64,000 bases of DNA from the NCBI GenBank assembly GCA_017450945.1, contig JAFSSP010000002.1, positions 8,405 to 72,404 of the forward strand. Direction: 5' to 3'. The notes under the pieces are model-generated. The model ran no database searches. It was not told the origin of the DNA and worked only from the letters and a program-made list of their open reading frames with translations. The position numbers were made by a program, and so were the translations under genes. This document shows positions 1,442 through 39,376 of the stretch, in pieces (the stretch's first letter is position 1; each line of letters begins with the position of its first letter). The DNA is from Clostridia bacterium (GTDB lineage: Bacteria > Bacillota > Clostridia > Oscillospirales > CAG-272).

Positions 1442-1451
1442 TCTCTTTCGT

Positions 1452-8870: not shown

Positions 8871-8887
8871 AAACGGAGGAAAACGTC

Positions 8888-9757: not shown

Positions 9758-9766
9758 GGAGAAATC

Positions 9767-10888: not shown

Positions 10889-10900
10889 CGGAGGGAGAAC

Positions 10901-11917
10901 ATGGTAAAAATCATCGTTGACTGCTTTGGCGGCGACAAGAGCCCGGATGCAAACGTCGAAGGCTCTCTTGCCGCGCTCGAAAAATTTTCGGATCTTTCTT
11001 TGATCCTCACCGGCGACGAGAACATCTTAAAAGAAAAGCTCGAAGGCAAAAAATACGATCCTTCGCGCCTTGAAATTCTGCACGCACCCGAGGTCGTTGG
11101 CTGTGACGAAAAGCCGACCGACGTCATCCGGCTGAAAAAGGAAAGCTCGATGATGAAGGCGATAAAACTTTTGCGCGAGGATGACAGCATCTCTGGCATG
11201 GTCAGCGCGGGCTCGACCGGGGCACTTGTCGCCGCGGCGACCTTGCGCATCGGCCGCATCCGCGGGATCATCCGCCCGGCCTTTTGCCCGATTCTTCCCA
11301 CCATGAACGGCGGCATTGTCGGCATTTGCGACAGCGGCGCGAACGTCGATATCACGGCCGATTATCTCCAGCAGTACGCCATTATGGCCAGTGCCTATCT
11401 TGAGAGCGTCTACGGCATCGAACACCCGCGTGTGGCACTGCTGAACATCGGCACCGAAGAAACAAAAGGCGACGATCTGAGAAAGACCGCCTATCCCCTT
11501 TTGGAATCCACCAAGGGCATAAATTTTGTCGGCAACATGGAAAGCAGGGATCTGCTCACCGGCAAATACGACGTGGTGGTCTGCGACGGATTTTCCGGCA
11601 ACGTACTGGTCAAATCCACCGAAGGCGCCTGCCTGGAAATGCTCAAGCTACTCAAGCGGGATATTTCGTCGAGCATTTTCAATAAGATCGGCGCGCTCTT
11701 CATGTATAAGATGTTCATGAAGGAAAAAGAGTTTATGAACTATCAGAACTACGGCGGCAGCATCCTGCTCGGCACCGAAAAAACGGTGGTCAAGGGGCAT
11801 GGAAGCTCGAACGCCAGAGCCATTGAAAAGTGCATCGAGCAGGCCTACAAAACCAAAACAGGCGGCCTCTCGGAGCGCATTGAAGCGGCTCTTGCCGAAA
11901 ACCAAAAAGCCGAATAA
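10901..11917 (+). CDS. plsX: Phosphate acyltransferase PlsX
   Basis: MVKIIVDCFGGDKSP.. N-terminus and full-length PlsX-like sequence. Confidence 0.93.
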   Translation: MVKIIVDCFGGDKSPDANVEGSLAALEKFSDLSLILTGDENILKEKLEGKKYDPSRLEILHAPEVVGCDEKPTDVIRLKKESSMMKAIKLLREDDSISGMVSAGSTGALVAAATLRIGRIRGIIRPAFCPILPTMNGGIVGICDSGANVDITADYLQQYAIMASAYLESVYGIEHPRVALLNIGTEETKGDDLRKTAYPLLESTKGINFVGNMESRDLLTGKYDVVVCDGFSGNVLVKSTEGACLEMLKLLKRDISSSIFNKIGALFMYKMFMKEKEFMNYQNYGGSILLGTEKTVVKGHGSSNARAIEKCIEQAYKTKTGGLSERIEAALAENQKAE

Positions 11918-12175: not shown

Positions 12176-12202
12176 AAAAAAGCGGCGCGTGCGCCGCTTT
12201 TT
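12176..12202. terminator. Bidirectional terminator between acpP and the convergent hydrolase
   Basis: AAAAAGCGGCGC-gt-GCGCCGCTTTTT. Confidence 0.8.
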
Positions 12203-13250
12203 ATTGTAGTGCTTTCTTTGCTGTTTCCTGCCTGAAAAACTCCAGTACCCCATCGAGAAACGCGGCGTTTGGCTCGCTGGCTCTCTCGTAGTCGATGCTT
12301 GTAAGAAAACTCTCTTTGACAGGCTCGGGAAGTCTGCCGCCGTATTGCTTTTGCAAGGTGATATACTCCTTTTCCACCGAGCGGACGTAGGCTCCCGCGC
12401 GCTCGGTCAGCCATGCGCCCGAGTGACCCGAGGAAAGCTCGGCGACCCGGACGTTTTGGTTGGTGATCCTATCTTTTCTGCCGGCAAGACTCGCTTCAAA
12501 CGGCACGACAAGATCCGCTTTATCTTGATAGAGCAGTACCGGCGTCTCGACCGCATTGATCGATTTGACGGCCGAGCGGTTCCCTTCCCTTCCAAAGGCA
12601 AAAAAGTCGCGCAGAGCAAGCGCCGGATACCCGAGGATCGAGAGCGCGCCCACGTGCAGTTTTGCGTGGTAGAACATGATCTCGGTCGGCAGATCAAATC
12701 CCGCAATGCAGGCCGCGGCCAGAACCGGCGCTTTTGAGAGATTCCTGCAGGCGGCGTAAGCCCCGGCGCTGTGCGCGTAGATCACGATCGGCAAATCCTT
12801 CTCTTCGGCAACGCAGGCAAGGGCCGCCGCAAGATCCCGCCCGGCCTGCGGAAGCCCGCGGACGCTTTTTCCCTCGCTCTTTCCAAGTGAGGTCGCATCA
12901 TAGGAAAAGACCTGCCAACCGTGATCGACAAAATAAGTGATCTCGGAGAGGTGCCCGTCGGCGGGGCATCCCGCCCCCGGAGCAACCAATATGAGTGCAG
13001 GGCTCTCGCGGTTCTCGTTTCCGTAAAAATAGCCGCAGAGCGAGCACCGGTGGCAGGAAAACCGGCATTCTTCTCTCGGGTAGCGCTCCGCATAGTGCGA
13101 ATACGGATACTGCACAAGAATCGATTTTTTTGCCATGGAGCGAAAGACCAGCCCCGAGATCACAACCGGAAGCACCAACGTTGGGAATAAAAGAAACGCC
13201 CACAAAATCCACAAACCATACCACCGCCTTACCGGTATAGTTTGGATCAA
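12201..13250 (-). CDS. Membrane-anchored alpha/beta hydrolase (paralog 2)
   Basis: N-terminal TM helix, YAHSAGAY elbow, DKADLVVP and SSGHSGAW motifs. TTG start at 13250 is uncertain because no clear RBS is present. Confidence 0.7.
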   Translation of the reverse strand: MIQTIPVRRWYGLWILWAFLLFPTLVLPVVISGLVFRSMAKKSILVQYPYSHYAERYPREECRFSCHRCSLCGYFYGNENRESPALILVAPGAGCPADGHLSEITYFVDHGWQVFSYDATSLGKSEGKSVRGLPQAGRDLAAALACVAEEKDLPIVIYAHSAGAYAACRNLSKAPVLAAACIAGFDLPTEIMFYHAKLHVGALSILGYPALALRDFFAFGREGNRSAVKSINAVETPVLLYQDKADLVVPFEASLAGRKDRITNQNVRVAELSSGHSGAWLTERAGAYVRSVEKEYITLQKQYGGRLPEPVKESFLTSIDYERASEPNAAFLDGVLEFFRQETAKKALQ

Positions 13251-13267
13251 AAAGAAAACAACTATGT

Positions 13268-13296
13268 AAAAAGCGGCGCCATAGGCGCCGCTTTTT
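13268..13296. terminator. Hairpin terminator
   Basis: AAAAAGCGGCGCC-atag-GCGCCGCTTTTT, downstream of gene 13314..13673 (minus strand). Confidence 0.8.
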
Positions 13297-13313
13297 ACAT
13301 TTTTGCGGGTATT

Positions 13314-13673
13314 TTATGCCACAACAGCCGTCCTGATGGCTTCTTCGATCTCTGCGGCGATGTCGGGCGTCTGGCTGATGGCGTACACGATCAACGCGAT
13401 CACAACCGGGACAAGAACGGTTGCAACGATGCTGATGATACCGCCGACGGTGCCGAGAACGCGGCCTACTCTCACTTTACCGGTAACCGGGACGCCGGCA
13501 TCTACGTACACATTGGATTTGCCTCTTGCGATAAAGCCGAAGATGATGCCGAGAAAGCTGAGCCAGAAAGTGCAAAGGAAGCTTACCGACAGGATTCCGA
13601 ACACCAGAATGGGCGTTCTTTTGGGAAGGTTTTGGGCCTTTACAACTTCTTGATTGGTTTCATTGTTTGCCAT
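13314..13673 (-). CDS. Small membrane protein (DUF4190-like)
   Basis: 119 aa with two hydrophobic hairpin segments. RBS AGGAGA 7 nt upstream. Confidence 0.65.
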   Translation of the reverse strand: MANNETNQEVVKAQNLPKRTPILVFGILSVSFLCTFWLSFLGIIFGFIARGKSNVYVDAGVPVTGKVRVGRVLGTVGGIISIVATVLVPVVIALIVYAISQTPDIAAEIEEAIRTAVVA

Positions 13674-13764
13674 GGTAGTTCTCCTTTCAAAAAAACAAAA
13701 TGTTTATACAAAACCAAAAGTCGGTTTTATATCAGTGGAATAATGGATCGTCAAAAGAGATTTC

Positions 13765-14337
13765 TCAGATCAACGATCCGGCTATTGCCCCGATCGTGAG
13801 CAAAATGAAGAAAATGCTCCAGATCACGGTCAGAACAATGCCGCAAACCAGTCCGAAAACGCCGAAAATTTTTCCGGTCGTGATCTTTCCGTCGCGAATT
13901 CCCTGCGCTGCATAGGAACTCGCTTTTCCCTTTGCAACCGCACCCAAAACAAGGGTTATAATGCTGGTGGAAAGGAAGATGGCCGAGTAGGTGTATAATC
14001 TTGCGATGATGTAATAGTAACTTCTGTATTCGGGGAGTACCACAAAGAAAAAGCCGAAAGAGCTCGTGATAAGAAACACCATCGCCAAGATCCCCAGTAC
14101 CAGGGGAGCGGCTACCGAACCGGTGGCAGGGGCAGGGGCATCCGGCGCCTGATAGGTATGCTGGGGTGCCTGATAAGTGGGTTGCGGAGCTTGGTAGGTC
14201 GTTTTGGGCGGGACTGCGGGCGCACTCCACTCTTCGGTGGACTGTGTTACGGGCTCGGCTCCCACTGCCGTACCGCAGTTGGGGCAAAAGGCCGCGTTGT
14301 CATCCAACTTGCTTCCGCATTTGGTGCAAAAAGCCAT
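13765..14337 (-). CDS. Zinc-ribbon / PQ-repeat / DUF4190-like membrane protein
   Basis: CTKCG..CPNCG ribbon, TYQAPQPTYQAPQHTYQAP repeats, then TM segments. The second ATG (14337) has better RBS spacing than 14343. Confidence 0.7.
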   Translation of the reverse strand: MAFCTKCGSKLDDNAAFCPNCGTAVGAEPVTQSTEEWSAPAVPPKTTYQAPQPTYQAPQHTYQAPDAPAPATGSVAAPLVLGILAMVFLITSSFGFFFVVLPEYRSYYYIIARLYTYSAIFLSTSIITLVLGAVAKGKASSYAAQGIRDGKITTGKIFGVFGLVCGIVLTVIWSIFFILLTIGAIAGSLI

Positions 14338-14397
14338 GATCATGTTCCTCTTTTCGTAAAATTTTTTTGAAGCTATAGTAAGCCGTGCAGGACGACA

Positions 14398-15351
14398 TTA
14401 CATCTTTTTTGCAGGCGCATCCACCGAATCAATAAACGCCTTGATCGCGGCGTCGTATTGCTCGGGAGCGTTGATCCGGATGCGCGAATGTCCTCCCTTT
14501 TCAAACCAGACAAGCTGTTTGTGTTTGGAGGGGCAAACGTCGTAGAGCTTTTGCGCTTTGTCGGGATCCGAATATTGATCCTCCCTGCCGTGTAGCATAA
14601 GGATCGGTTTTTGCAGGTTGAGAATCCTTTTTTTCGGGCCGTCGCCCACCGCGTCAGCGTGTGAAAAAACGCGGATGTAAAGCAAAACAAACCAGATAAA
14701 CGGATACTTCGGCCGCTTTTGCTCCTCCATGTGGCGAAGGAAGCTCGAATAGAAGCAGTCGTAGATCCCATCCACTGCAAGACCCACCACATAGTCGGGA
14801 CACTCGTTTGAGGCCGCCGCAAAGAGCGTGGTGGAAGAACCGATGCAAATGCCGTGCAGAAAGATCTTTTTCTGCCCTTTTTCATCGTGTAAAAACTTTG
14901 CCCAAGCGATCACATCGCGGTATTCTTTGTAGCCGATGCAGTTGAAGGTTCCCTCCGACAGGCCGTGACAGCGGTTGTCGATCACAAGGAAGTTACAGGC
15001 GGCCCCTTTGTAGGGAATGGCGTAATAGTAGGAGTAGCGCAGCGCCTCCATACGGCCGGGGACAATGATGGCCGTGCGGTCGTAGCCATAATCGTAGAAT
15101 TCGCCGGCCAGACGAAAACCGTCGCTGACGATCGAAACTTCGGATCTATAGGCCTCTTCGCCTTTGATCCATGCCTCGCCCTCGCGGTACATGCGGGCAA
15201 GCTCTTCATCGTCCGGCTCGCTGATCTCTCTTCCCCATTTGCCCGGTTTGTTGCGGACAAGAACAATGGTATAAACGATCCCGCCAACCAAAAATCCGGG
15301 GAACAGGAACAGCACAAAAATAATCAAAAAAACAATGAGTGCAATCTTCAA
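14398..15351 (-). CDS. Membrane-anchored alpha/beta hydrolase (paralog 3, Cys in nucleophile position)
   Basis: TTG start at 15351 follows GGAGGAA. TM helix present. Elbow reads GICIGSS where paralogs have GISMG. LHGREDQ and GGHSRI motifs. Confidence 0.75.
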   Translation of the reverse strand: MKIALIVFLIIFVLFLFPGFLVGGIVYTIVLVRNKPGKWGREISEPDDEELARMYREGEAWIKGEEAYRSEVSIVSDGFRLAGEFYDYGYDRTAIIVPGRMEALRYSYYYAIPYKGAACNFLVIDNRCHGLSEGTFNCIGYKEYRDVIAWAKFLHDEKGQKKIFLHGICIGSSTTLFAAASNECPDYVVGLAVDGIYDCFYSSFLRHMEEQKRPKYPFIWFVLLYIRVFSHADAVGDGPKKRILNLQKPILMLHGREDQYSDPDKAQKLYDVCPSKHKQLVWFEKGGHSRIRINAPEQYDAAIKAFIDSVDAPAKKM

Positions 15352-15365
15352 GGGGACTTCCTCCG

Positions 15366-17021
15366 TCAGACAAGGCCGATCATCCAGTGGTAGAGCGTCT
15401 GACCGCCGTACACCGGGCAAATTTCCAGCTCCGGGAAGGCATCGCCGAGGATCGTTTCCACATCGCCCGCACCGGCAAAGCCATCCTTGCCGCCGAACGC
15501 CATGCAAATCTCTTTTCCGTCGGGATCCAGATGTGCAAGACCAATGCGCAGAGCTTCTTTTAAGTCGTCCGAGGCCGCAACGATCTCGCCGTCGACCAGC
15601 GAAAGATATTGTCCTTTTTTCGCCGAAATCGTCTCTCCTTCAAAATCCTTGGTCGCAACCGTGAGAAGCAGAGCCGAAACGTTCTCGGCGCCGTCCTGCA
15701 TCAGACGAATACGATAGTCGGTATCCTCACTGCTCGCCACATCCATTTCGATGGCGCAGTATCCCTCGATCATGTTGGCGGTCGGGATCACGGTCACGCG
15801 GTCGGCTTTGCCCGAAAGAGAGGCCGCCTGGAGCGCCGCGCGAACCGAATTTTTGTTGTTGGGAAGGATCACGATGCGGTTTGCATTTGTTTTACGGATG
15901 GCGTCAAGGAATTCCTCGGCCGAGGTATTCATCTCGGAGGAGGCCTCGATCACCTTGGTGCAGCCGAGGTCGGTGAAAAGCGTTTTCATCTCTTCGCCGT
16001 TGACGACCGCAACGATGCCGAGCGGGGCAAGATCTCTCTCTCCCGCCTCTTTTTGCCGCTCGTTGTACTGGAGCTGCATGTTTTCGAGCTTGAAGGTCAA
16101 AAATTCGCCGTATCTGCGGGCAAACGCGATCACCTTTTCGGGCTCTTTGGTATGGACGTGCACCTTGAGCCGCGTGCCCTCGAGGACCGAGACGATCGAT
16201 TCGCCCATGGTTTCGAGCGTTGCAAGGAAGCTTTGCAGATCAAACTCCTTGTCATAGCCTTCGGTTTTGAGCAACCGGAGCAAAAACTCGGTGCAATAGC
16301 CTTTTTCAAAGCTGCTGGTTTCGTCAAAGAGGTCAAAGTCGGGAGTCTCTGCGACCGCGGAGGTTTCAAAATCGTTTTTTGCGAGGCTCTCGCCGGGCTT
16401 GCCTTCGAGAATGTCGCCCGAAAGGAACATGGCCATGCCCTCCACAAAAACGATATACCCCATCGCGCCGCTGTCAACGACGCCGGCTTTTCTCAAAACG
16501 TCGAGGAGCAGAGGCGTGTTGGCAAGGCTCTTTTTCATTTCTCTGACATAGAGCGAAAAGAGCTCCTTTGCGCCCTCGCACTCGTCAAGCTCGGGACGGA
16601 TATTTTCGAGGCCCTCTCTCGCCACGGTGAGGATCGTGCCCTCAACCGGGTGCGAAACCGCGGCGTATGCCTGACGGTAGCCGCTCTCAAAGGCGTCGAT
16701 GAGTTCCTTGTTGCCGATCTCTTCTTTCTCTTTTAAGGCGAGGTACCAGCCGCGGATGATCTGCGAGAGGATCACGCCCGAGTTGCCGCGCGCACCAAGC
16801 AGCGCGCCCGAGGAAAACTCGGAAAGATACTCTCCGACGCCGGGCTCGGGAGATGCGCTTCTAAGCCCCTTTTCGACGGTCAGGCGCATGTTGACGCCGG
16901 TATCGCCGTCGGCCACGGGAAAGACGTTGAGATCGTTAATTTTTTTCTCATGCAGACAGAGGTTGGCGTAGCCGTTTGCCAGCATTCCCTCCAGCTTCTG
17001 TCCGTCGATCCGATTGATCAT
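15366..17021 (-). CDS. DAK2-domain fatty acid kinase subunit (YloV/FakA family), copy 2
   Basis: NVFPVADGDTGVNM motif. ATG at 17021 follows AGGAGTG, so the longer TTG-start ORF to 17054 is less likely. Confidence 0.85.
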   Translation of the reverse strand: MINRIDGQKLEGMLANGYANLCLHEKKINDLNVFPVADGDTGVNMRLTVEKGLRSASPEPGVGEYLSEFSSGALLGARGNSGVILSQIIRGWYLALKEKEEIGNKELIDAFESGYRQAYAAVSHPVEGTILTVAREGLENIRPELDECEGAKELFSLYVREMKKSLANTPLLLDVLRKAGVVDSGAMGYIVFVEGMAMFLSGDILEGKPGESLAKNDFETSAVAETPDFDLFDETSSFEKGYCTEFLLRLLKTEGYDKEFDLQSFLATLETMGESIVSVLEGTRLKVHVHTKEPEKVIAFARRYGEFLTFKLENMQLQYNERQKEAGERDLAPLGIVAVVNGEEMKTLFTDLGCTKVIEASSEMNTSAEEFLDAIRKTNANRIVILPNNKNSVRAALQAASLSGKADRVTVIPTANMIEGYCAIEMDVASSEDTDYRIRLMQDGAENVSALLLTVATKDFEGETISAKKGQYLSLVDGEIVAASDDLKEALRIGLAHLDPDGKEICMAFGGKDGFAGAGDVETILGDAFPELEICPVYGGQTLYHWMIGLV

Positions 17022-17063
17022 GGAACGAACACTCCTGTTTGCTTCTTTTCTCAAAAGGAATTT

Positions 17064-18410
17064 TTATTTGTTGTCCTTTTTGCCCATCATTACAAGGCTC
17101 TTGGGGAGAATATAGGTTCCCGCAAATGCCACAAACATGGCGATGGCACAGATGAGGGTCATATAAGCCATTGCCTGCGAGCCCTCTTTTTTGCTTGCAT
17201 CCTTCAGGGCGACCAGCACCACGCCGGTTCCAAGCCCGGAAGCCACGCCGGAAAAGAGTCCCTGCACGGCAAAGTACATAGCCGAGTTGGAAATGCCGGT
17301 TCTTGCCTCTTCCTCAGCCGCAAGTTGAGCGGGGACCGAGTAAGCGACGGCAAAGAGCGAGCCGACCGCCATGGAGCAAATGAGTCCGCAGACCACCGAA
17401 AGGATGGTTTTGGGAAGTCCCGCACCAAGGAATTTGCCCACAAAGAACATGGCAAACATTCCGACGCCGAACAGAAGAAGAACATAGCGGAAAGCAAATC
17501 CGAATCCCTTTTTGCGCAGGATCACATTGTAAAGGATCAAGGTAAACGGAACCGGTGCAAAGGAGGTCGCCATGACCACCATCATATTGAGTCCCACAAA
17601 GGAGAAATACTCGTTGATGCCGCCGAGGAAAAGCTGTACGCCAAAGGTCATGAGCGCGTAGACGCACATCCAAAGCACATAGGTCTTGTTGCGGAAGGTG
17701 TGGCCGAGCGACTGAACGAGGTTGACCGATTTGACCTTTTCGACGTTCCCGAGTTCATCCTGGTTCTCTTTGATCATAAAGAGCGGAATGAGCATGGTCA
17801 GCGCCAGAGGCAGAACGATCAGCGCAACATACTTGATGTTGATACCGTTGAGCAAAATGCGAACCAGCACGTAGCCGATGATGAAATAGAAGATATCGCA
17901 AACCGACTTGACATTCGACATGAAGGTTCTGTCGGGCTCGTTGTCCACAATTTCGGTAAAGGTGGCGTAGTAGGTCACCATGGTCAGCGTATAGAAGCTA
18001 TAGAACACGCAAAGAACCACACCAAAGAAAATGGTGTTGCCGAGAGTGGCGCCCGAGGTGTTGGGAATGACAAGCGCAAACAGAAGGTAAGCCGCAACGG
18101 TCAGCACAAGGCCGATGAGGATCGACGGGCGGCGGCGCCCCCATTTGGTGCGCAAATTATCGGTAAAGGAAGCCATGGGAATGTCAATGATTCCGTCAAT
18201 GATCTTTGCAACCAAAACAAAGGTTGCCCAAACGGCGGCAACGACAAGATCCTTGCCAAGAAAAGTCTGGAAGGGGATCGCGTCAACACCGAATCCGCCG
18301 ACAAGCAGGGCGCTGCAAAGATAGGAGCCCATCATCAGGTTGAGCATATTGACGCCCATACCCGAGACGGCATAGACGAGCATTTGACTTCTTTTGGTTA
18401 ACCTTCTCAT
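17064..18410 (-). CDS. GPH (MelB/MFS_2) family cation symporter
   Basis: DGIIDIPMASFTDNLRTKWGRRRP matches the GPH loop signature (D..DP..G...D......GRRRP). Polytopic, 448 aa. Confidence 0.8.
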   Translation of the reverse strand: MRRLTKRSQMLVYAVSGMGVNMLNLMMGSYLCSALLVGGFGVDAIPFQTFLGKDLVVAAVWATFVLVAKIIDGIIDIPMASFTDNLRTKWGRRRPSILIGLVLTVAAYLLFALVIPNTSGATLGNTIFFGVVLCVFYSFYTLTMVTYYATFTEIVDNEPDRTFMSNVKSVCDIFYFIIGYVLVRILLNGINIKYVALIVLPLALTMLIPLFMIKENQDELGNVEKVKSVNLVQSLGHTFRNKTYVLWMCVYALMTFGVQLFLGGINEYFSFVGLNMMVVMATSFAPVPFTLILYNVILRKKGFGFAFRYVLLLFGVGMFAMFFVGKFLGAGLPKTILSVVCGLICSMAVGSLFAVAYSVPAQLAAEEEARTGISNSAMYFAVQGLFSGVASGLGTGVVLVALKDASKKEGSQAMAYMTLICAIAMFVAFAGTYILPKSLVMMGKKDNK

Positions 18411-18416
18411 TTTTCT

Positions 18417-19343
18417 TTAACCCTCCAGACATTTGGTCAGAATTTGTTTTTCGGCCTCAAGTCCCTCCGAGATCGGCGTGCCGACGTAGTAAGCGGCCAT
18501 AAGGCCGGGGCCTACGTTGATGCCGCAGGTGGGGTAAACGTCCTTGACGCAAACCTCCAGCGGGTGGAACTTCTCTTCGATCATGGCCTTATATTTTTCG
18601 GCCTGCGCCCTGCGGTTGCTCTGGGCGATGAAGATGACCTGTCCTTCGGGGTTGACAATGGTTTTTTCGATATAGCCGAGCAGAGCGGCGTAAGCGGCCT
18701 TCTCACCCTTGGCTTTTCCGATGACGGTGGTAAGCCCGTTGTAATCGAACTCGCCGATCGGTTTGATGCCGATGAGCGTGCCAAAGAAGGCGGCCGCGTG
18801 ATTGATGCGTCCCTTCTTTGCAACAAAGCTCAGATCGTCCAGCCAGCCTGCCTGGTGGTAAAGATTTTTGGTTTTTTCAAGCTCGGCCGCCGTTTCTTCC
18901 AGGCTGTGGCCCGCGGCACGGAACTTGGAGGCGTTGACCGCCATAAGACCGACTGCGGGGCCGAAGCGAAGCGAGTCGATCACTTCGATCTTGGCGTCCG
19001 GCATCTCTTCCAGCACCATGGCCTTTGCCTCGCACGCAAACTCGTAAGCGCCGCTGATCTTGCTTGAGAGCGCAAGGAACAGAACACCCTTCCCTTCGGA
19101 TACGATCTTCCGGAAAGCGTCGCGCACTTCGCCTGCGCTGGGGGGAGAGGTTTTGAAACGGTCGGGGTTTGCTTTGAGTGCGGAGTAAAACTCCTCTCTC
19201 GAAGTGGTTTCCCAACTGACAAAGGAATCGCTCTCCTTGCCGTCGATCACCAGATGTGCGATCAACATCTTGATCGAATACTTCTCCTGAAGATCCTTTT
19301 CCAGATCCGCGGAAGTATCTACCAAAATCTCAAAATCTGTCAT
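18417..19343 (-). CDS. DegV-family fatty-acid-binding protein (FakB-like), copy 2
   Basis: FEILVDTSADL start and FKTSPPS motif. 308 aa. Confidence 0.85.
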   Translation of the reverse strand: MTDFEILVDTSADLEKDLQEKYSIKMLIAHLVIDGKESDSFVSWETTSREEFYSALKANPDRFKTSPPSAGEVRDAFRKIVSEGKGVLFLALSSKISGAYEFACEAKAMVLEEMPDAKIEVIDSLRFGPAVGLMAVNASKFRAAGHSLEETAAELEKTKNLYHQAGWLDDLSFVAKKGRINHAAAFFGTLIGIKPIGEFDYNGLTTVIGKAKGEKAAYAALLGYIEKTIVNPEGQVIFIAQSNRRAQAEKYKAMIEEKFHPLEVCVKDVYPTCGINVGPGLMAAYYVGTPISEGLEAEKQILTKCLEG

Positions 19344-19357: not shown

Positions 19358-20305
19358 TTATGCTTCTGTATCGTCATTGAAACAGCGTTTCAAAAAACGG
19401 TCAACCGTTGTGTCGCCCTCCTCGGAGAGCTTTTGATAGCAAAGCGCGTGTGCCGCCCCCGGAACCGCAAGGAATTCCTTTTTGGAGGCACAGGCTTCAA
19501 AATTTTTGCGTCCGACCGAGATCGGGACTGTGCGATCCTCCTCGCCGTGGAGAAAGAGCGCGGGGATTTTTGTTTTTTTCAAGGATTCTTCAACCGAAAC
19601 CTTGAGGTCTTTGTGAAAGGCGCAAAGGCCGACCAGTCGTGCGACCGGCCGCATGAGGAAGATCGGCAGGTGCCTTTGTCTGGAATCACGAATGTACTGC
19701 CCGTATGGGCTTTCAAAGCCGCAATCAAGAATCATGCCCTTCACGCGACCGCCGTCCAGTTTGTCCGAGGCGTAGGCAATGGTGGCGCATCCCATGGAAA
19801 TACCCCAAAGAACGGCTTCCTCGGTATTGGTGTTTTCAAAAAGCCAGTCGATCCATTCTAAAAGATCCTCTTCTTCCACAACGCCGAGCGAGGGACGTCC
19901 CCCGCGGCTTGGTGTGTGCGCTCTGGAATAGGGGAGAAAAATGTTGTATCCTTTTTCGAGGAATTCGTTTGCGGCTCCGGCAAAATTGGTCAGCGGCCGC
20001 ACGCAAAATCCGTGGCAAAGAACAAGCGTTTTTTCGCTCTCCCCGGGATAGTAGTCGGCACAGAGCTGCAACTTTCCTTTGCGGCGCGCAACATGTTGCA
20101 CCGGGCGGCGCTCCAGACGTTCGACGTCGGCGCGCATCTCTTCAAGATAGGGTGCGGCGCTATCCTCTTCGGGGTGCTTTTCTTCCCAGGGATATTTCGG
20201 GGTTTTCTGGCGGAACACACCGAGAAAGGAGGCGATGACAGGCCCCACGATGAACAAAAGGTAGAGCCCGATCAGAGAGAGCAGAATAATCCAGAAGATT
20301 TCCAT
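19358..20305 (-). CDS. Membrane-anchored alpha/beta hydrolase (paralog 4)
   Basis: TM helix, GISMGCAT, LHGEEDRTVP and PGAAHA motifs. Closest to paralog 1. RBS AAGAGG. Confidence 0.85.
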   Translation of the reverse strand: MEIFWIILLSLIGLYLLFIVGPVIASFLGVFRQKTPKYPWEEKHPEEDSAAPYLEEMRADVERLERRPVQHVARRKGKLQLCADYYPGESEKTLVLCHGFCVRPLTNFAGAANEFLEKGYNIFLPYSRAHTPSRGGRPSLGVVEEEDLLEWIDWLFENTNTEEAVLWGISMGCATIAYASDKLDGGRVKGMILDCGFESPYGQYIRDSRQRHLPIFLMRPVARLVGLCAFHKDLKVSVEESLKKTKIPALFLHGEEDRTVPISVGRKNFEACASKKEFLAVPGAAHALCYQKLSEEGDTTVDRFLKRCFNDDTEA

Positions 20306-20314: not shown

Positions 20315-21262
20315 TTACAGGGAAATTGCTTTTTGTGCCGGAACAAGCTTTTGCAGGGATCTGCCCATCTTTGCTTCGTAGCGCCAGATGAGCGCCACGC
20401 GCGCGGAGTCTCCGCAAAGGGCAAGATACAGCGGAGGCGTCCCCTCATAAATGCCACAGAGGGACAGGGCGTTCTCTTTGAGAGAGGATTGCCGATAGAC
20501 TTCTCGCGCCCGCTCTTCCACTTCGCGACAGAAAAGCTCCTTCTCTCCCGCGGGGATCTCTTTTGCAAACAGCCCGACCGGCTCCTGCGAAACGGCGACA
20601 AGCGCGGCGGTATCGGTGGTGCAGATCGAAAACCGGAAAATCCCGGACACAAAGCCGGATTTGGTTCTTTTGAGCTTCCAGTTCTTTGGTTCGTAGGCAA
20701 GACTTTTTGAGACGGCATGCCCCAAAAGCGTCCAGGCAAACAGTTCTTTTTGGCTCTTTTCCGGCGGCATCTTTTTGATGGCGCGCAGAAGCGCTTTTGG
20801 CAAAGGACTGTCAAGCGGGGGCAATTCCTCCGAAAAGGACGCGATATAGACGTCAAGCACCGGACGCGCGCGCCAGCTTTTGCGCGCGGCCTCCTCCAGT
20901 TCGCAAAAATGTCTGCCGAACACGCACTCGTTGGCAAAATGCTCGCAGTTGTTCTTGAGAATGTCGTAACCGCCTTCTCCGATCCTTTCGCGGGCGATCT
21001 TCATCGTTTTTTTCGGAGAAAAGCGACTCCGCCGCTCGGCGCGGTCGAGCGAGGCGACCTCCACCAGCTTGCCGGCGGAAAACTCGTCAATGCTCACACT
21101 TTTTACAAAGATTTTGGAGGCGTCGCGGTTCAGCCCGTCGAGCGGTGCGTCTCCGAACTCGATGACCTCATCGTCCGAGCAGTAAACGCCGTAGTGACAA
21201 ATGGCGCCCACATGGATGCGGATCATATCTCCCGGAGAGCAATCGGCAAGGATCCACTTCAT
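20315..21262 (-). CDS. LRAT/PLAAT-like (permuted NlpC/P60) domain fused to a Sfp-type PPTase-like domain
   Basis: N-terminal half has GDMIRIHVGAICHYGVY (His box) and NNCEHFANECVFG (Cys box). C-terminal half parallels Sfp (PEKSQK.., LLGHAVSKSL, FRFSICTT..LVAVSQEPVGLFAKE), but the GxD Mg site is not conserved. Confidence 0.6.
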   Translation of the reverse strand: MKWILADCSPGDMIRIHVGAICHYGVYCSDDEVIEFGDAPLDGLNRDASKIFVKSVSIDEFSAGKLVEVASLDRAERRSRFSPKKTMKIARERIGEGGYDILKNNCEHFANECVFGRHFCELEEAARKSWRARPVLDVYIASFSEELPPLDSPLPKALLRAIKKMPPEKSQKELFAWTLLGHAVSKSLAYEPKNWKLKRTKSGFVSGIFRFSICTTDTAALVAVSQEPVGLFAKEIPAGEKELFCREVEERAREVYRQSSLKENALSLCGIYEGTPPLYLALCGDSARVALIWRYEAKMGRSLQKLVPAQKAISL

Positions 21263-21510
21263 TTCAGTTTTTTCTCGATGTAATCGACCACGTCGCCAAG
21301 CGTAACAAAATCGTTCATGCCGACGTTGTCAAAACGCATGGAAAAAGTCTCCTCAATGGCAAGGATCATATAGAGCATCCCGATCGAGGAAAGACCGACG
21401 TCGCTGGTGAGATTGGAATTTTCTTCAATCGCGTCCAACGAGTCTCTTTTGGCCGGGTCGGCTGAGAGCAGAATGCTTTTGAGCGTATCGATGATCTGTT
21501 GTCTTTCCAT
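21259..21510 (-). CDS. Acyl carrier protein, non-canonical attachment motif
   Basis: 83 aa. DVGLSSIGMLYMILAIEE occupies the place of DLGxDSLD. Overlaps its neighbours by 4 nt on one side and is 1 nt from the other. Confidence 0.75.
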   Translation of the reverse strand: MERQQIIDTLKSILLSADPAKRDSLDAIEENSNLTSDVGLSSIGMLYMILAIEETFSMRFDNVGMNDFVTLGDVVDYIEKKLK

Positions 21511-21511: not shown

Positions 21512-23023
21512 TCAGTTCTTTTCCAGTTTGTAGCGGATGATCTTCATGCTGGGCGTGCGGACAAAATCGGTCTCGCGGATCACGATCTTCTGCGCGCGCT
21601 CGTAAGCCGGGAGCGATTGATTGACCTTCACCAGCTCGGCCATGAGAACTTCCATCGGCTTCTCGGCGCCGAGCTTTGCGATCTCGGTCATACGCGGGAC
21701 GACCTCAAGCGAGAGATAGTGCTTGCCGTTCTCGTCGACCGCCTCGAAGATCTGGCTGTCCTGCACAAGTTCGATCTTGTTGAAGAAGGCTTCGACTTCG
21801 GCGGGAGAAATGTTCTCTCCGTTGTCGAGAATGATGAGTTCCTTTTTGCGGCCGGTGATGTAGAGGAAGCCCTCGTCGTCAAAGCGGACAAGGTCGCCGG
21901 TCTTGAACCAACCGTCTTCAAAGGCGGCCGCGTTCTCCTCGGGATCGCCCACATAGCCGTCCATCAGGTTTGCACCCTTGAGCCAGAGCTCGCCGTCCAC
22001 GATCTTTACCTCCTGGTTTGGGTAAAGGAGGCCGACCGAATCCGGCTTTGCGAGGAAATCCGGGTTGCCGGAAACCAGGTTCGCAGTTTCGGTAAGTCCG
22101 TAGCCCGGGCAAAGGTGAATGCCCATTTTCTCATACTCGGTTACAAGGTAGGGGGCAACTGCGGCCGCGCCGCAGATGATGTATTTCATATCCTCGCCGA
22201 GCATGTTCTTGCCGAATCTGCGCGAGAGGGCGAGCGCCATCTCGGCAAGCGCCGGAACCACCACCAGCATGGTGGGGCGGAACATGGCGATATCGCGGAA
22301 GAGATCCTTGTTATCCTTGCAGATAAAGAGCGCGCTTCCGGTGTAAAGCGAGGTCAGAAGGTTGCGGATAAGTCCAAAGACGTGCGAGAGCGGGATGGCG
22401 AGCAGATAGCGCTGGCCGTACACCACCTCCAGACCGTAACAGCCGTTTGCGGTGCCTTGCATGACCGCGCGGTTGGAAAGCAGAGCTCCCTTGCTCTTGC
22501 CAGTCGTGCCGCCGGTGAACATGATGGCGCAGCCGTCCTCGGGTTTTACGTTTTTGTTGATCGGGCTTCCCTTCTCCGCCGCCGCATCGGTAGAAATGCA
22601 GGGAATGCCTTTTGCCTTTGCGATGTTCAGTTTGCCCTCCAGCACGGGAGCATACAGGATCGCCTTGGCCGAAAACTTCATGGTCACGCCGAACAGACTC
22701 ATCTCGTCGAGCTGTGCAGGAATCACGGCGGCGGTCATGCCGCTGGTCGAAACGGCAAGAAAAGCCTTGACAAACTCATAGGAGTTGGGGGCAAAGACCG
22801 AGACCCGGTCGCCGGCCTTGAGTCCGGCACCCAGAAGCGCGGTGCGAAGGATCGCCGCGTCGGCTTCCAATTCCGAGAAGGTGTGGGTTTGTCCATCGTA
22901 AACGATGGCCGGGCTGTCGGCATACTTCATAAGGCAGTTCTCCCACATCTCGCTTGTTGTGCCAAAGGCGCGGATGCTCGAGAAGAGCTCGGGGGACTGG
23001 TAATCTGCAAAGGTCTTTTTCAT
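21512..23023 (-). CDS. Acyl-AMP forming fatty-acid ligase (AMP-binding family)
   Basis: FTGGTTGKSKG, GYGLTET and GWFKTGDLVRFDDEGFLYITGRKKELII motifs. Confidence 0.88.
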   Translation of the reverse strand: MKKTFADYQSPELFSSIRAFGTTSEMWENCLMKYADSPAIVYDGQTHTFSELEADAAILRTALLGAGLKAGDRVSVFAPNSYEFVKAFLAVSTSGMTAAVIPAQLDEMSLFGVTMKFSAKAILYAPVLEGKLNIAKAKGIPCISTDAAAEKGSPINKNVKPEDGCAIMFTGGTTGKSKGALLSNRAVMQGTANGCYGLEVVYGQRYLLAIPLSHVFGLIRNLLTSLYTGSALFICKDNKDLFRDIAMFRPTMLVVVPALAEMALALSRRFGKNMLGEDMKYIICGAAAVAPYLVTEYEKMGIHLCPGYGLTETANLVSGNPDFLAKPDSVGLLYPNQEVKIVDGELWLKGANLMDGYVGDPEENAAAFEDGWFKTGDLVRFDDEGFLYITGRKKELIILDNGENISPAEVEAFFNKIELVQDSQIFEAVDENGKHYLSLEVVPRMTEIAKLGAEKPMEVLMAELVKVNQSLPAYERAQKIVIRETDFVRTPSMKIIRYKLEKN

Positions 23024-23691
23024 GATCTATCTCCTTCTGCAATTTTTTTGAGTTCTGCTTCTTTTTCTCTTAAAAATTCACTGAATTTCTGAATGCTGTC
23101 CATGGACGGCATGGCGCCAAGCCTCTCTCGGACGTCGATCGGCTCGCCGATGCAATAAACCGTGCGGCGATACCATTTTTCGGGCGTTTTTGAATAGATC
23201 GGAACGATCGGAACGCCGCTCCGGATCGCCATCATCACCAAGCCGGATTTGAAAACGTCCACCTCGGCTTCACTGGCGTTCACATGCCCTTCGGGATAGA
23301 TCGAAACGATGTTCCCAGCGGTCAGGTGATCGGTGATCTCGCGGAAGGTGCCGAGATTGAAGTTTTTGCGGTTCACCTCGATGCAGTGAAAGGCGTAGGT
23401 GAAGAGCCAGCGGGTAAACTTTTTTTCAAAAAGCTCGTCGGCGGCAACAAAGTGCATGCGCCGGTACCAAATTGAAAACTGGTCGCGCGCGGGATCGAGA
23501 AGACCTGTGTGGTTAAAAGACAGGACGGCACCGCCGCAGATCTTCTTTTTTGCGGCCGCATTCTCAAATCTCCACTTGGGCCGCAGAATGAGAAGCCAGC
23601 CCGGTGCGGCCAGAAGCCGACCAAAATCGTACAGAGCGTAGCGAAGATCGATGATGCGCGCTTTTTTATTTCTTTGCTTTTTTTGCTTCAT
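23020..23691 (-). CDS. PlsC-type acyltransferase (LPLAT) B
   Basis: ATG at 23691. NHTGLLD (HX4D) and IYPEGH boxes. Overlaps the upstream LPLAT by 26 nt and the downstream ligase by 4 nt. Confidence 0.75.
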   Translation of the reverse strand: MKQKKQRNKKARIIDLRYALYDFGRLLAAPGWLLILRPKWRFENAAAKKKICGGAVLSFNHTGLLDPARDQFSIWYRRMHFVAADELFEKKFTRWLFTYAFHCIEVNRKNFNLGTFREITDHLTAGNIVSIYPEGHVNASEAEVDVFKSGLVMMAIRSGVPIVPIYSKTPEKWYRRTVYCIGEPIDVRERLGAMPSMDSIQKFSEFLREKEAELKKIAEGDRS

Positions 23692-24313
23692 ACTCTTCCA
23701 AAAGATCGCCCAGTTCCATGATCCTTTCCCGGTATTTTTCCGAAATGCGGGCGAGCTGTTCCTTTTCGGACAGCGACGTGTCAAGATAGGCCAAGGTATC
23801 GATCGGTTTCCCGATCAAAACCGAAAGGCGTTTCTTTTTGAAATAAGAGCCGTTGGTATAAACCGGGATTACCGGAACGCCGCTCGAGAGGGCGAGGTAG
23901 GCCACGCTCGGCACAAAGGGGAGCGGCCGCGCCTCACCCGGAAGCGGAAGCCGACTCTCCGGGAAGACCAGAACCACGCCGCCCTTTTCCAGAATCTTTT
24001 TGGATTTTTCCACAAATCCGTAGTCATGGGCCTTGCGATCCACGCGGATGCCGCCCAGCCATTTGAGCAGGATGCGCAGTCCCTTTTTTTCAAAGAGGAC
24101 TTCGGCCATCTGCGCCCGGACGGTTCTGAAGAAAAAGACAAACAGGATCGCGACATAATCGAGGACCGAGGTGTGGTTGCTGATGATGATCGCGGGCCCT
24201 TTGATCCTTTTGCTTTGTATTTGTTTATCCTCGTAAAAGACGCGCGGCCGAAAGCAAATCACTTCGGTAAGCCAGCCCGTGATCTTTACGAAGGTGTTCC
24301 AAAATGTTATCAT
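23666..24313 (-). CDS. PlsC-type acyltransferase (LPLAT) A
   Basis: NHTSVLD (HX4D) and VFPESRL boxes. RBS AAGGAAG. Confidence 0.8.
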   Translation of the reverse strand: MITFWNTFVKITGWLTEVICFRPRVFYEDKQIQSKRIKGPAIIISNHTSVLDYVAILFVFFFRTVRAQMAEVLFEKKGLRILLKWLGGIRVDRKAHDYGFVEKSKKILEKGGVVLVFPESRLPLPGEARPLPFVPSVAYLALSSGVPVIPVYTNGSYFKKKRLSVLIGKPIDTLAYLDTSLSEKEQLARISEKYRERIMELGDLLEEYEAKKAKK

Positions 24314-26348: not shown

Positions 26349-26377
26349 ATTATAACATAACTATAGTCTGCTGTCAA
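26349..26377 (-). promoter_or_regulatory. Promoter of the 11-gene lipid operon (TTGACA-17-TATAAT)
   Basis: Minus strand reads TTGACAgcagactatagttatgtTATAAT, about 64 nt upstream of ATG 26278. Confidence 0.7.
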
Positions 26378-26483: not shown

Positions 26484-26512
26484 TTGACATCCTCTGAAAA
26501 CCGTTTTATAAT
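26484..26512 (+). promoter_or_regulatory. Promoter of the abrB-like/ABC operon (TTGACA-17-TATAAT)
   Basis: TTGACAtcctctgaaaaccgtttTATAAT. Confidence 0.7.
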
Positions 26513-26549: not shown

Positions 26550-26759
26550 ATGAAAGAACAAACGGAAGACCGCTTTATCGTCAGCGTCAAAGTCGGTCCA
26601 AAAGGGCAAATCACCATTCCCGCCGAGGCGCGGAAAATGTTTGATATCAAAGAGGGGGACACCCTCATGGTAATGGGCGACCGGGCGCGCGGCATTGCGC
26701 TGGTCAAGTCCGACGCGTTTTATTCTTTGATGGGAGGTGCATTCCATGTCGATCATTAA
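26550..26759 (+). CDS. AbrB/MazE/SpoVT-family DNA-binding protein
   Basis: VKVGPKGQITIPAEARKMFDIKEGDTLMV is a swapped-hairpin SpoVT-AbrB motif. RBS AAGGAGG. Confidence 0.8.
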   Translation: MKEQTEDRFIVSVKVGPKGQITIPAEARKMFDIKEGDTLMVMGDRARGIALVKSDAFYSLMGGAFHVDH

Positions 26760-39375: not shown

Positions 39376-39376
39376 T

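Follow-up and report, generated by a model that had tools for sequence, protein, structure and literature searches.

A candidate lipid-salvage operon with its own MFS_2/GPH-type transporter in uncultured gut and rumen Clostridia

A sugar-transporter-like membrane protein of uncultured gut and rumen Clostridia always sits among enzymes that activate and attach fatty acids. Gene context suggests that it probably imports a dietary or host lipid, a route not described for Gram-positive bacteria. The protein is encoded in a 64,000-nt stretch of a Clostridia bacterium genome (GCA_017450945.1, contig JAFSSP010000002.1), hereafter the window. Three genes lie head to tail on the minus strand: a DegV gene (18417-19343), the MFS_2/GPH-type transporter gene (17064-18410), and a FakA-like kinase gene (15366-17021). 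The gap between DegV and the transporter is 6 nt, and the gap between the transporter and the FakA ATG is 42 nt. A sequence-only reading of the window had described a second FakA/FakB pair bracketing a MelB/GPH-family symporter, with no neighbouring glycosidases, and this observation was confirmed. Its interpretation of the transporter as a lysolipid or fatty-acid importer, based partly on the relationship to MFSD2A, was only partly supported.

The DegV protein (308 aa) matches PF02645 at 198 bits and TIGR00762 at 205 bits (cutoff 99.7). The transporter (448 aa) matches PF13347 MFS_2 at 99 bits (cutoff 27). Its GPH signature, DGIIDIPMASFTDNLRTKWGRRRP, translates exactly from 18126-18197 on the minus strand, which corresponds to residues 72-95 in loop 2-3. 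The FakA-like kinase (FakA2) could start from a TTG (15366-17054), or from the ATG that follows an AGGAG Shine-Dalgarno (15366-17021); the latter start was adopted. It contains Dak2, FakA-like_M, and FakA-like_C domains and a DGDTG Mg/ATP motif, and it scores 473 bits against TIGR03599 (cutoff 396). The first, housekeeping-type set lies at 7233-11917 on the plus strand. It consists of FakA1 (7233-8870), DegV1 (inside 8777-9757), a GNAT-like protein, and PlsX (10901-11917). DegV1 has the canonical carboxylate-binding His. DegV2, the protein next to the transporter, keeps T65, S93, S97, and R179, but has Asn276 in place of this His (FakB residue roles from PMC10848957).

The three genes are not a self-contained unit; they form the middle of an operon of 13 tightly packed genes on the minus strand. 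A promoter-like site (26349-26377; TTGACA, 17-nt spacer, TG, TATAAT; 12/12 match) lies about 70 nt upstream of the likely start of the first gene. A terminator-like hairpin (13264-13300; 17-bp stem with 9 G-C pairs, followed by a T-rich tail) lies after the last gene. The starts are translationally coupled or preceded by a Shine-Dalgarno. The first gene (24344-26278) encodes an acyl-AMP/acyl-carrier ligase fused to a PP-binding carrier domain (PF00501, 126.8 bits; PF00550), with only generic fatty-acid ligase hits in NCBIfam. Its ORF is open to 26431, but the likely start is MKIQ at 26278. Two PlsC-family acyltransferases follow. AT2 (23666-24313) has the HX4D motif NHTSVLD, matches PF01553 at 63.6 bits and the Aas-type models PRK08633 and PRK08043, and shares 22.7% identity with the acyltransferase domain of E. 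coli Aas (E=2e-5). AT1 (23020-23691) has the motif NHTGLLD and matches PF01553 at 63 bits and PRK08633 at 47.8 bits. Its ORF is open to 23784, but the likely ATG at 23691 overlaps the end of AT2, as it does in orthologues such as that of the related locus L001. A second AMP-dependent fatty-acid ligase (21512-23023, 503 aa) matches PF00501 at 206 bits and long-chain fatty-acid ligase models in NCBIfam. It shares 29% identity over 293 aa with the E. coli Aas ligase domain (E=2e-31). Thus AT2 and this ligase are homologous to the two halves of Aas. A stand-alone acyl carrier protein (21259-21510, 83 aa) matches PF00550; its hits to the ACP models in NCBIfam are all below the cutoffs.

The next gene (20315-21262) encodes an LRAT/PLAAT-like (NlpC/P60) domain, a phospholipid acyl-hydrolase or acyl-transferase (residues 8-118; PF04970, 69.5 bits). 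It contains the NCEHF Cys and the HYGVY His, and the alignment to human PLAAT3 includes NCEHF. Its C-terminal part of 190 aa gave no Pfam hit in the window protein, whereas an ACPS phosphopantetheinyl transferase was detected there in the L001 orthologue. A membrane-anchored α/β hydrolase, ABH2 (19358-20305; PF00561 and PF12146), precedes DegV2; a second one, ABH1 (14398-15357, approximate start), follows FakA2. Both have an uncharged N-terminal tail and a hydrophobic segment, followed by 3.6-4.3 K/R in 15 aa (a mean of 3.6 across 41 orthologues of ABH2). On the positive-inside rule alone, the catalytic domains are predicted to face the cytoplasm. The operon ends with a Zn-ribbon protein with transmembrane segments (13765-14343; PF13240) and a small membrane protein (13314-13673, 119 aa) with weak DUF4190/DUF4064 matches. 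Zn-ribbon proteins of this type recur beside the transporter in distant subfamilies (equivalent genes in loci L001, L003, L088, and L090), and a DUF4064 gene lies next to the transporter in locus L092. A third hydrolase, ABH3 (12201-13250, minus strand), lies downstream of the terminator and is associated with the cluster in many but not all loci.

The arrangement is far beyond chance. Among 80 species-level MAGs (GTDB species representatives), all of them uncultured, DegV is adjacent upstream in 74/75 eligible loci and FakA downstream in 67/68. Both misses are threshold artefacts of the counting script, because the genes are present. ABH1 is present in 65/65 eligible loci; the AMP-ligase-PP, AT2, and AT1 in 50/52 each; the ACP in 48/52; ABH2 in 47/52; and the second ligase in 46/52. 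Uniqueness of the adjacency to this genome, and close clustering of the transporter with characterised sugar symporters, had been set beforehand as grounds for rejecting a lipid role; neither was found.

Nine distant subfamilies of the transporter (P0122 to P0156; 28-50% identity) were also examined, and all of them neighbour acyl-activating or acyl-transfer genes. The gene orders are FakA/MFS/AMP-ligase in P0122; DegV/MFS/Dak2 in P0123; AMP-ligase-PP/MFS/AT/AT/ACP/LRAT in P0124; ACPS/MFS in P0127; MFS/FakA-like/AMP-ligase in P0138; AMP-ligase-PP/MFS/AT/AT in P0140; AMP-ligase, MFS/AT in P0137; AMP-ligase-PP/MFS in P0148; and AMP-ligase-PP/AT/AT/MFS/AT in P0156. Fak appears in only three of the nine, at 50, 42, and 34% identity; the other six have no Fak gene nearby. 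Therefore, the family-wide partner of this clade is not Fak, but an acyl-carrier ligase plus PlsC-type acyltransferases, an Aas-like module.

The transporter is not a known sugar symporter. It scores 49.6 bits against TIGR00792 gph (cutoff 231) and 27.8 bits against the MelB equivalog, and a search of PDB sequences returned no hit. A family profile scores MelB at 46.9, MFSD2A at 43.7, GusB at 40.8, YihP at 33.5, YihO at 31.1, and SUC1 at 26.4 bits. The predicted 12-TM model has a pLDDT of 75, and the Foldseek comparison ties MelB (TM 0.74) with MFSD2A (TM 0.70-0.73) as best folds. The cation-site residues D72, D76, and T141 are invariant, and align with MelB D55, D59, and T121 and with the Asp-Asp-Thr of MFSD2A. 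However, the Asp-Asp motif is also present in the H+-coupled sugar symporter GusB; it is family-wide and not lipid-specific. The sugar-binding D124 of MelB aligns with an invariant Met144, K377 with Gly, and R149 with Ser. The mapping in the C-terminal half rests on a weak profile alignment, and helix I, which carries MelB K18 and D19, could not be aligned at all. An ordinary glycoside:cation symporter that merely lies among lipid genes is strongly disfavoured and very unlikely. Pfam and JGI do label the protein as an MFS/sugar or GPH-family transporter, and a weak Melibiase-like ORF (30035-31651) lies 11.6 kb away as the nearest glycosidase. But this ORF is on the other strand in another transcription unit, it is absent from the related loci, and no glycosidase lies in the operon. 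The adjacency conserved in 80 species, the acyl-metabolism neighbours of all nine distant subfamilies, the scores far below the gph and MelB model cutoffs, and the loss of the key Asp also argue against this reading.

A lipid-related substrate is therefore well supported by context. Context alone does not separate an acyl donor (free fatty acid) from an acyl acceptor (lysolipid or deacylated head group), nor import from export. Our best reading, held with no more than moderate confidence, is that the transporter might be the uptake (flipping) component of an operon that salvages exogenous lipid, and that it belongs to a deep, previously uncharacterised clade of the MFS_2/GPH family. In this view, a cation-coupled symporter would bring a single-chain acyl lipid, most likely a lysolipid or another monoacyl ester, from the outer leaflet or the medium to the cytoplasmic face. 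On one branch, the two acyltransferases would reacylate it, using acyl chains that the two ligases load onto the dedicated carrier proteins. On the other branch, the membrane-anchored hydrolases would deacylate it; DegV2 would capture the released fatty acid, and FakA2 would phosphorylate it to acyl-phosphate for PlsX/PlsY. The analysis itself establishes the gene content, operon structure, and conservation of the cluster, the intact catalytic motifs of the enzymes, the retained cation site and lost sugar-binding Asp, and the association of the whole transporter clade with acyl-activating and acyl-transfer genes. The substrate, the direction of transport, the cation coupling, the hydrolase topology, and the hand-off between proteins are inferred from sequence alone. 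The absence of the canonical His in DegV2 also weighs against this reading.

The transporter might instead be an exporter or outward flippase, although this seems unlikely. The operon would then assemble a specialised acylated lipid from salvaged fatty acids, and the transporter would move it to the outer leaflet or the medium, as LtaA does for the lipoteichoic-acid glycolipid anchor, and MFSD2B and SPNS2 do for S1P; MFS lipid exporters are well known (PMC8866510, PMC10790328). The cluster does have a biosynthetic look: it has two dedicated carrier proteins, and many orthologues carry a dedicated phosphopantetheinyl transferase fused to LRAT, which is typical of specialised-lipid gene clusters. 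Two acyltransferases belong to the family-wide core, and an ABC-2 exporter pair lies just upstream (26737-28232). However, no chain-building enzyme (KS, KR, DH), glycosyltransferase, or head-group-forming enzyme was found in the operon or in any of the related loci. Fak has been described only as a route for exogenous fatty acids. The two or three hydrolases that flank the transporter, with predicted cytoplasmic orientation, fit the breakdown of something imported, and the invariant cation site is that of the importers MelB and MFSD2A.

Free long-chain fatty acid, also named by the sequence-only reading, is a similarly unlikely substrate. A cation-coupled symporter would hand it to the adjacent AMP-ligase-carrier or FakB/FakA (vectorial acylation), and the two acyltransferases, which would suffice for G3P to PA, would acylate endogenous glycerol-3-phosphate and lyso-PA. 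The most constant neighbours of the clade are fatty-acid-activating enzymes, with an AMP-ligase-PP or a FakA in eight of the nine distant subfamilies and in all close ones. A conserved basic residue, K168, lies one position from the residue aligned with MelB Arg149. However, protonated fatty acids cross bilayers unaided, and FakB extracts them from the membrane; a review of fatty-acid use by Gram-positives describes this and never uses the word "transporter" (PMC10146087). Free fatty acid also does not explain the hydrolases flanking DegV-MFS-FakA (65/65 and 47/52 loci), nor the LRAT phospholipase/acyltransferase. MFSD2A, the closest lipid-carrying structural relative, carries lysolipids; it needs a zwitterionic head group and is not known to take free fatty acid.

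A water-soluble deacylated head group, such as glycerophosphocholine, glycerophosphoethanolamine, or galactosylglycerol from plant galactolipid, is less likely still. The tandem acyltransferases of the family-wide core match a two-step acylation, as in a bacterial "GPC-pathway"-type salvage; the GPC pathway exists in streptococci with unidentified transporters and acyltransferases (PMC6805115). GPH-family members are glycoside carriers, and the hosts live on plant material rich in galactolipid. However, the alignable sugar-binding residues of MelB are not conserved, and no glycerophosphodiesterase or glycosidase lies in the operon. A polar substrate also does not explain the link to hydrolases and Fak in the window's clade.

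Fak systems are normally described without a dedicated transporter, and streptococci take up lysoPC and GPC through "unidentified transporters" (PMC6805115). LplT-Aas has been identified only in Gram-negatives, and other lysolipid transporters are expected elsewhere (PMC11416262). LplT itself is energy-independent (PMC11416262) and shows no detectable sequence similarity (-1.8 bits); the analogy is functional only. The link to MFSD2A is a shared fold and cation site, not orthology (14-15% identity). The reacylation branch proposed here would follow the logic of E. coli LplT-Aas.

On the minus strand, three genes lie head to tail: a DegV gene at 18417-19343 (308 aa), a 448-aa transporter gene at 17064-18410, and a FakA-like gene, which is open from a TTG at 17054 but whose likely start is the ATG at 17021 that follows an AGGAG Shine-Dalgarno. 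The domain assignments are secure. DegV matched PF02645 (198 bits) and TIGR00762 (205 bits), both above their cutoffs; the transporter matched PF13347 MFS_2 (99 bits against a cutoff of 27, covering residues 13-403); the FakA-like protein contained the Dak2, FakA-like_M and FakA-like_C domains, and TIGR03599 scored 473 bits against a cutoff of 396. The transporter signature picked out by the sequence-only reading translates exactly from 18126-18197(-), and the gaps of 6 nt and 42 nt which it had stated were also correct. A first FakA-DegV pair (FakA1 and DegV1) followed by PlsX lies on the plus strand at 7233-11917. The observation of a second FakA/FakB-type pair bracketing a transporter is therefore confirmed.

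The real unit is a 13-gene operon. All genes from about 26278 down to 13314 are on the minus strand, and are tightly packed or overlapping. A perfect sigma-70-type promoter (TTGACA, 17-nt spacer, TG, TATAAT) lies at 26377-26349, and a terminator with a 17-bp stem lies at 13300-13264. In order of transcription, the operon encodes an AMP-dependent ligase fused to a PP-binding carrier; two PlsC-family acyltransferases (AT2 and AT1), both with HX4D; a second fatty-acid-type AMP-ligase; an 83-aa ACP; an LRAT/PLAAT-like protein; a membrane-anchored alpha/beta hydrolase (ABH2); DegV2; the transporter; FakA2; a second membrane-anchored hydrolase (ABH1); a Zn-ribbon membrane protein; and a small DUF4190-like membrane protein. 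A third hydrolase follows the terminator. A search of the operon leader for a riboswitch or other Rfam element found none.

The surroundings of the operon also contain lipid-related genes. Upstream, at 3224-6810 (+), there is a second trio of hydrolase, transporter and acyltransferase, consisting of an alpha/beta hydrolase (3224-4189, Hydrolase_4), a Na+/glutamate-symporter-like membrane protein (4268-5644, PF03616 at 48.8 bits), and a 389-aa PlsC-family acyltransferase (5641-6810), whose start overlaps the transporter stop by 4 nt. Together with FakA1-DegV1-PlsX and the operon, roughly the first 26 kb of the window is a lipid-metabolism island. Between DegV1 and PlsX, at 9767-10888 (+), lies a 373-aa protein with only a weak C-terminal GNAT match and no NCBIfam family, which could be an N-acyltransferase linked to fatty-acid use. 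An ABC-2-type exporter pair (ATPase 26737-27483, permease 27480-28232, plus strand) is transcribed divergently from the operon promoter, and a second perfect consensus promoter on the plus strand at 26484-26512 faces these genes. Beyond them is a GlpA-like FAD/[2Fe-2S] glycerol-3-phosphate dehydrogenase (28424-29851, minus strand). The window also contains a bacterial RNase P class A RNA gene at 1450-1809 (-) (236.5 bits), tRNA-Ser at 6900-6988, tRNA-Met and tRNA-Glu at 39299-39451, and, at 31641-33077 (+), a protein of no known function with strong DUF6937 and DUF6938 matches (357 and 281 bits).

The transporter has about 1,800 detectable relatives in the 90%-clustered protein collection. The best 120 are 63-91% identical, and the only names given are 'MFS transporter' or 'GPH family'. 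A scan of one genome per GTDB species found 141 species with a relative. The best 80 are all uncultured MAGs from sheep, goat, buffalo, yak, deer, reindeer and horse, and from human gut, including Hadza samples. They are assigned to Clostridia, except that one carrier of the full cluster (locus L079, JAXFQZ010000014.1) is labelled Candidatus Ornithospirochaeta, which is either horizontal transfer or a binning error. Among loci with enough flanking sequence, DegV is adjacent upstream in 74/75, FakA is adjacent downstream in 67/68, and ABH1 is present in 65/65; the ligase-carrier and both acyltransferases are present in 50/52, the ACP in 48/52, ABH2 in 47/52, and the second ligase in 46/52. The single miss for DegV and the single miss for FakA both have the gene present, just outside the distance threshold used. 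Gene-by-gene Pfam assignments in four related loci (L001-L004) showed the same order. The possibility that the adjacency is unique to this genome, which had been set beforehand as grounds for rejecting the lipid hypothesis, is thus refuted.

An exhaustive HMMER search of 1.84 billion representatives showed a small family, in which only 63 clusters reach E<1e-30 and only 204 reach E<1e-10. Nine distant subfamilies were looked up singly through representative proteins (P numbers), and their neighbourhoods were read in gene order, with MFS as the transporter and AT as an acyltransferase. P0122 (50% identity to the window protein) lies between FakA and an AMP-ligase; P0123 (42%) lies between DegV and Dak2; P0124 (38%) is found in the order AMP-ligase-PP, MFS, AT, AT, ACP, LRAT; P0127 (38%) follows ACPS; P0138 (34%) is found in the order DUF4064, MFS, FakA-like, AMP-ligase; P0140 (33%) in the order Zn-ribbon, Zn-ribbon, AMP-ligase-PP, MFS, AT, AT; P0137 (33%) lies between a divergent AMP-ligase and an AT; P0148 (31%) is found in the order Zn-ribbon, AMP-ligase-PP, MFS; and P0156 (28%) in the order AMP-ligase-PP, AT, AT, MFS, AT. 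All nine neighbour an acyl-activating or acyl-transfer gene. The constant partner is the ligase-carrier plus PlsC-type acyltransferases, whereas Fak appears in three of the nine subfamilies (50, 42 and 34% identity) and throughout the window's own clade. This is the strongest evidence that the substrate is lipid-related. It also shifts the emphasis from a Fak system with a transporter to an Aas-like module with a transporter, to which Fak and hydrolases were added.

Zn-ribbon or small multi-TM proteins (Zn_Ribbon_1, DUF4190, DUF4064) recur next to the transporter in close and distant subfamilies, as at 13314-14343 (-) in the window and at three other loci of the family (L088, 5962-6792; L090, 2768-3214; L092, 143-544). 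Several distant homologues, including the proteins P0128, P0132, P0143 and P0147, are 560-900 aa long and carry a terminal DZR, DUF4234 or YccF-type extension, and one (P0168) carries a polysaccharide deacetylase. A comparison of the C-terminal extension of the fused homologue P0128 with the window's Zn-ribbon protein showed no significant similarity, so that this link rests only on a shared domain type and on neighbourhood, and the role of these proteins is unexplained.

By sequence, the transporter is far from everything characterised. The TIGR00792 gph model (glycoside-pentoside-hexuronide symporters) scored 49.6 bits against a cutoff of 231.35, and the MelB equivalog scored 27.8 bits against a cutoff of 456. 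A direct phmmer search against the PDB gave only spurious hits, and a profile of close homologues recovered only the loop 2-3 motif of SUC1. A broader family profile was needed to reach MelB and MFSD2A; it scored MelB 46-47, MFSD2A 38-44, GusB 40.8, YihP 33.5, YihO 31.1, SUC1 26.4 and E. coli LplT -1.8 bits. The protein is therefore roughly equidistant from all known GPH branches, and shows no detectable sequence similarity to LplT. The AF2 model (pLDDT 75, pTM 0.73) has 12 long TM helices. The top Foldseek hits were MelB, MFSD2A and SUC1; MelB (TM 0.74) and MFSD2A (TM 0.70-0.73) were matched equally well, at 14-16% identity.

The helix II/loop 2-3 signature D-x-x-x-D ... G-(K/R)-x-(K/R)-P is present at residues 72-95 as DGIIDIPMASFTDNLRTKWGRRRP, and aligns to the same motif in MelB, GusB, MFSD2A and SUC1. 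Residue mapping by HMM alignment showed that MelB D55, D59 and T121 correspond to D72, D76 and T141, which are invariant in 23 family members and also align to the MFSD2A Asp-x-x-x-Asp and Thr; Y120 and R141 of MelB are also kept. By contrast, the Na+ ligand N58 is replaced by Ile, and of the sugar-binding residues, D124 aligns with an invariant Met144, R149 with Ser169, and K377 with Gly388. The C-terminal part of this mapping is of low confidence, and helix I of MelB, which carries K18 and D19, could not be aligned, so no claim is made about those positions. The pattern of a kept cation site and a lost galactoside site is also seen in MFSD2A. However, the Asp pair is family-wide, since GusB has it too, and it argues for cation-coupled symport in general rather than for lipid specifically. 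No tight clustering with characterised sugar symporters was found. There is no glycosidase partner gene; a weak Melibiase-like ORF (PF02065, 43.6 bits) lies 11.6 kb away at 30035-31651 (+), but it is on the other strand, in another transcription unit, and absent from the related loci examined. An ordinary sugar symporter lying among lipid genes by coincidence is considered very unlikely.

The enzymes of the operon retain the motifs expected of their families. AT1 scored 63 bits against PF01553 and has the HX4D motif NHTGLLD; AT2 scored 63.6 bits and has NHTSVLD. AT2 matched the E. coli Aas acyltransferase domain (22.7% over 141 aa, E=2e-5), and the second ligase matched the Aas ligase domain (29% over 293 aa, E=2e-31). 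Both acyltransferases hit the NCBIfam models for Aas and for the long acyl-[ACP]--phospholipid O-acyltransferase proteins. The LRAT/PLAAT-like protein (20315-21262, minus strand) scored 69.5 bits against PF04970 and aligned with human PLAAT3, including the catalytic NCEHF Cys and the HYGVY His, although the second His of PLAAT3 aligns with Glu. In many orthologues, such as that at L001 7076-8119, this domain is fused to an ACPS phosphopantetheinyl transferase, and in others it is a stand-alone LRAT of 138-142 aa; it always sits next to the small ACP. An ACPS domain was looked for in the C-terminal 190 aa of the window's copy, which gave no Pfam hit.

FakA2 has all three FakA domains and the DGDTG Mg/ATP motif, passes the YloV subfamily model, and is 36% identical to FakA1, with which PVADGDTGVNM aligns. 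It does not reach the NF038248 equivalog cutoff (347 against 975), as is also the case for FakA1 (391). DegV2 is 26% identical to DegV1. Across 78 orthologues, T65, S93, S97 and R179 are invariant, so that the Thr, Ser and Arg that hold the fatty-acid carboxylate in FakB are kept, but Asn276 is found in 77/78 where DegV1, solved DegV proteins and FakB have the His that hydrogen-bonds the fatty-acid carboxylate (residue roles from PMC10848957). This replacement may mean an altered ligand or altered chemistry. ABH1 and ABH2 have a short uncharged N-terminal tail, a hydrophobic segment of 25-35 aa, and then a mean of 4.3 and 3.6 K/R, respectively, in the next 15 residues (69 and 41 orthologues), which by the positive-inside rule suggests that their catalytic domains face the cytoplasm. 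This orientation is an inference. PDB sequence searches for the hydrolases gave only generic hits at the level of esterase, carboxylesterase and monoglyceride lipase, and so give no substrate clue.

Taken together, the transporter probably brings an exogenous single-chain acyl lipid to the inner leaflet, most likely a lysolipid or another monoacyl ester. In this view, two fates would be encoded there: reacylation by the PlsC-type acyltransferases, using acyl chains loaded by the ligases onto dedicated carriers (the LplT-Aas logic), and deacylation by the inward-facing hydrolases, followed by capture of the fatty acid by DegV2 and its phosphorylation by FakA2. This reading is considered about as likely as not. 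The architecture, its conservation, the intact motifs and the clade-wide association with acyl metabolism come directly from the analysis, while the substrate, the direction, the coupling to Na+ or another cation, the uptake and reacylation of lysolipid and the hand-off between proteins are inferred. What favours import of an ester is the presence of hydrolases flanking DegV-MFS-FakA, and the absence of any chain-building or head-group-forming enzyme. Export of a lipid made by the cluster is judged unlikely, free fatty acid as the substrate slightly more so, and a polar head group that is acylated twice less likely still. The sequence-only proposal of a lysolipid or fatty-acid importer is partly supported: it survives both conditions under which it was to be rejected and gains a stronger basis than the one offered, but its function is unproven and the substrate and direction remain open.

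A more far-reaching reading, which is only tentative, is that this MFS_2 clade would be the bacterial counterpart of MFSD2A, namely a cation-coupled lysolipid (or monoacyl-ester) symporter that feeds imported lipid directly to an Aas-like reacylation module and to a dedicated Fak pair. That would give gut and rumen Clostridia a complete assembly line for building membrane lipid from dietary or host lipid, and would be the first dedicated lipid transporter tied to a Fak system and the first LplT-Aas analogue outside the Gram-negatives. It is very unlikely, although conceivable, that the His-to-Asn DegV2 binds the imported monoacyl lipid itself and that FakA2 phosphorylates it. If lysolipid transport were confirmed, it would show that this activity arose in, or is ancestral to, the GPH branch in bacteria as well as in animals.

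The finding is real, conserved and not ordinary, and bears on the unresolved question of how Gram-positive bacteria take up lysolipids, which becomes testable. Streptococcal lysoPC and GPC uptake is attributed to 'unidentified transporters' (PMC6805115). Fak systems are described without any transporter, and a review of fatty-acid use in Gram-positives never uses the word 'transporter'. Literature searches on DegV or fatty acid kinase with MFS transporters, FakA/FakB with lysophospholipid transporters, bacterial MFSD2A homologues, Fak in the rumen, and clusters of acyl-ACP synthetase, MFS and acyltransferase genes found no description of this cluster or clade. The present analysis provides a candidate transporter family with unusually consistent genomic evidence, and a defined 13-gene operon that can be synthesised and tested in a heterologous host. 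The carriers are abundant uncultured Clostridia of the rumen and the human gut. Bacterial handling of dietary lipid in the rumen shapes the fatty-acid composition of meat and milk, and in the gut it shapes host lipid signalling.

The system is regarded as a putative lysolipid or fatty-acid salvage system with a new transporter family and a new coupling to Fak. Functionally, it would be closest to the E. coli LplT-Aas lysophospholipid uptake and reacylation system, including the single-ORF LplT-Aas fusions modelled by NCBIfam PRK08633. Both combine an MFS transporter gene with a PlsC-type acyltransferase and an AMP-dependent acyl-carrier ligase in one operon, an arrangement that holds in the window operon, in 50/52 species loci, and in distant subfamilies. 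The proposed logic is the same, with a lysolipid flipped inward and then reacylated with a freshly activated exogenous fatty acid (PMC11416262). However, the transporter belongs to a different MFS family (MFS_2/GPH; TC 2.A.2) and is not a member of the LplT family (TC 2.A.1.42). The Aas functions are split over separate genes and duplicated (two ligases, two carriers, two acyltransferases); dedicated carrier proteins are used instead of housekeeping ACP; and an LRAT-like enzyme, hydrolases and a Fak pair are added. A cation site is retained, whereas LplT flipping is energy-independent. The hosts are Gram-positive-type Clostridia, whereas LplT-Aas is identified only in Gram-negative bacteria, with other lysolipid transporters anticipated elsewhere (PMC11416262).

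Structurally, the transporter is closest to MelB and MFSD2A. MFSD2A (NLS1), the eukaryotic Na+-dependent lysophosphatidylcholine symporter of the GPH/MFS_2 branch, shares the fold, aligns with the family profile over its full length (43.7 bits, positions 57-453), and likewise lacks the MelB sugar-binding Asp at the D124 position. The two are not orthologous, as identity is only 14-15% in the structural alignment and MFSD2A is detected only by the family profile, no better than MelB or GusB; the lipid-binding residues of MFSD2A could not be mapped. MelB, the Na+/melibiose symporter and prototype of the GPH family, is the best Foldseek hit and shares the loop 2-3 signature and the cation-site residues, but the transporter is not a MelB-type sugar symporter. 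The Fak pair resembles FakA/FakB of Firmicutes (S. aureus, streptococci, E. faecalis), although it is a divergent second copy embedded in an operon, both proteins score below the FakA_VfrB and FakB1 equivalog cutoffs, and it is genetically coupled to a transporter and to hydrolases, which is not described for Fak systems. The NRPS-like fatty-acid-amide gene clusters of gut Clostridia, such as the OaaC pathway of Coprococcus eutactus (PMC13310621), also use an AMP-ligase and a carrier protein to activate exogenous fatty acids. This identity was considered and rejected, because those clusters depend on a free-standing condensation domain and no such domain is present here; instead, this cluster has PlsC-type acyltransferases, Fak, hydrolases and an MFS_2 transporter.
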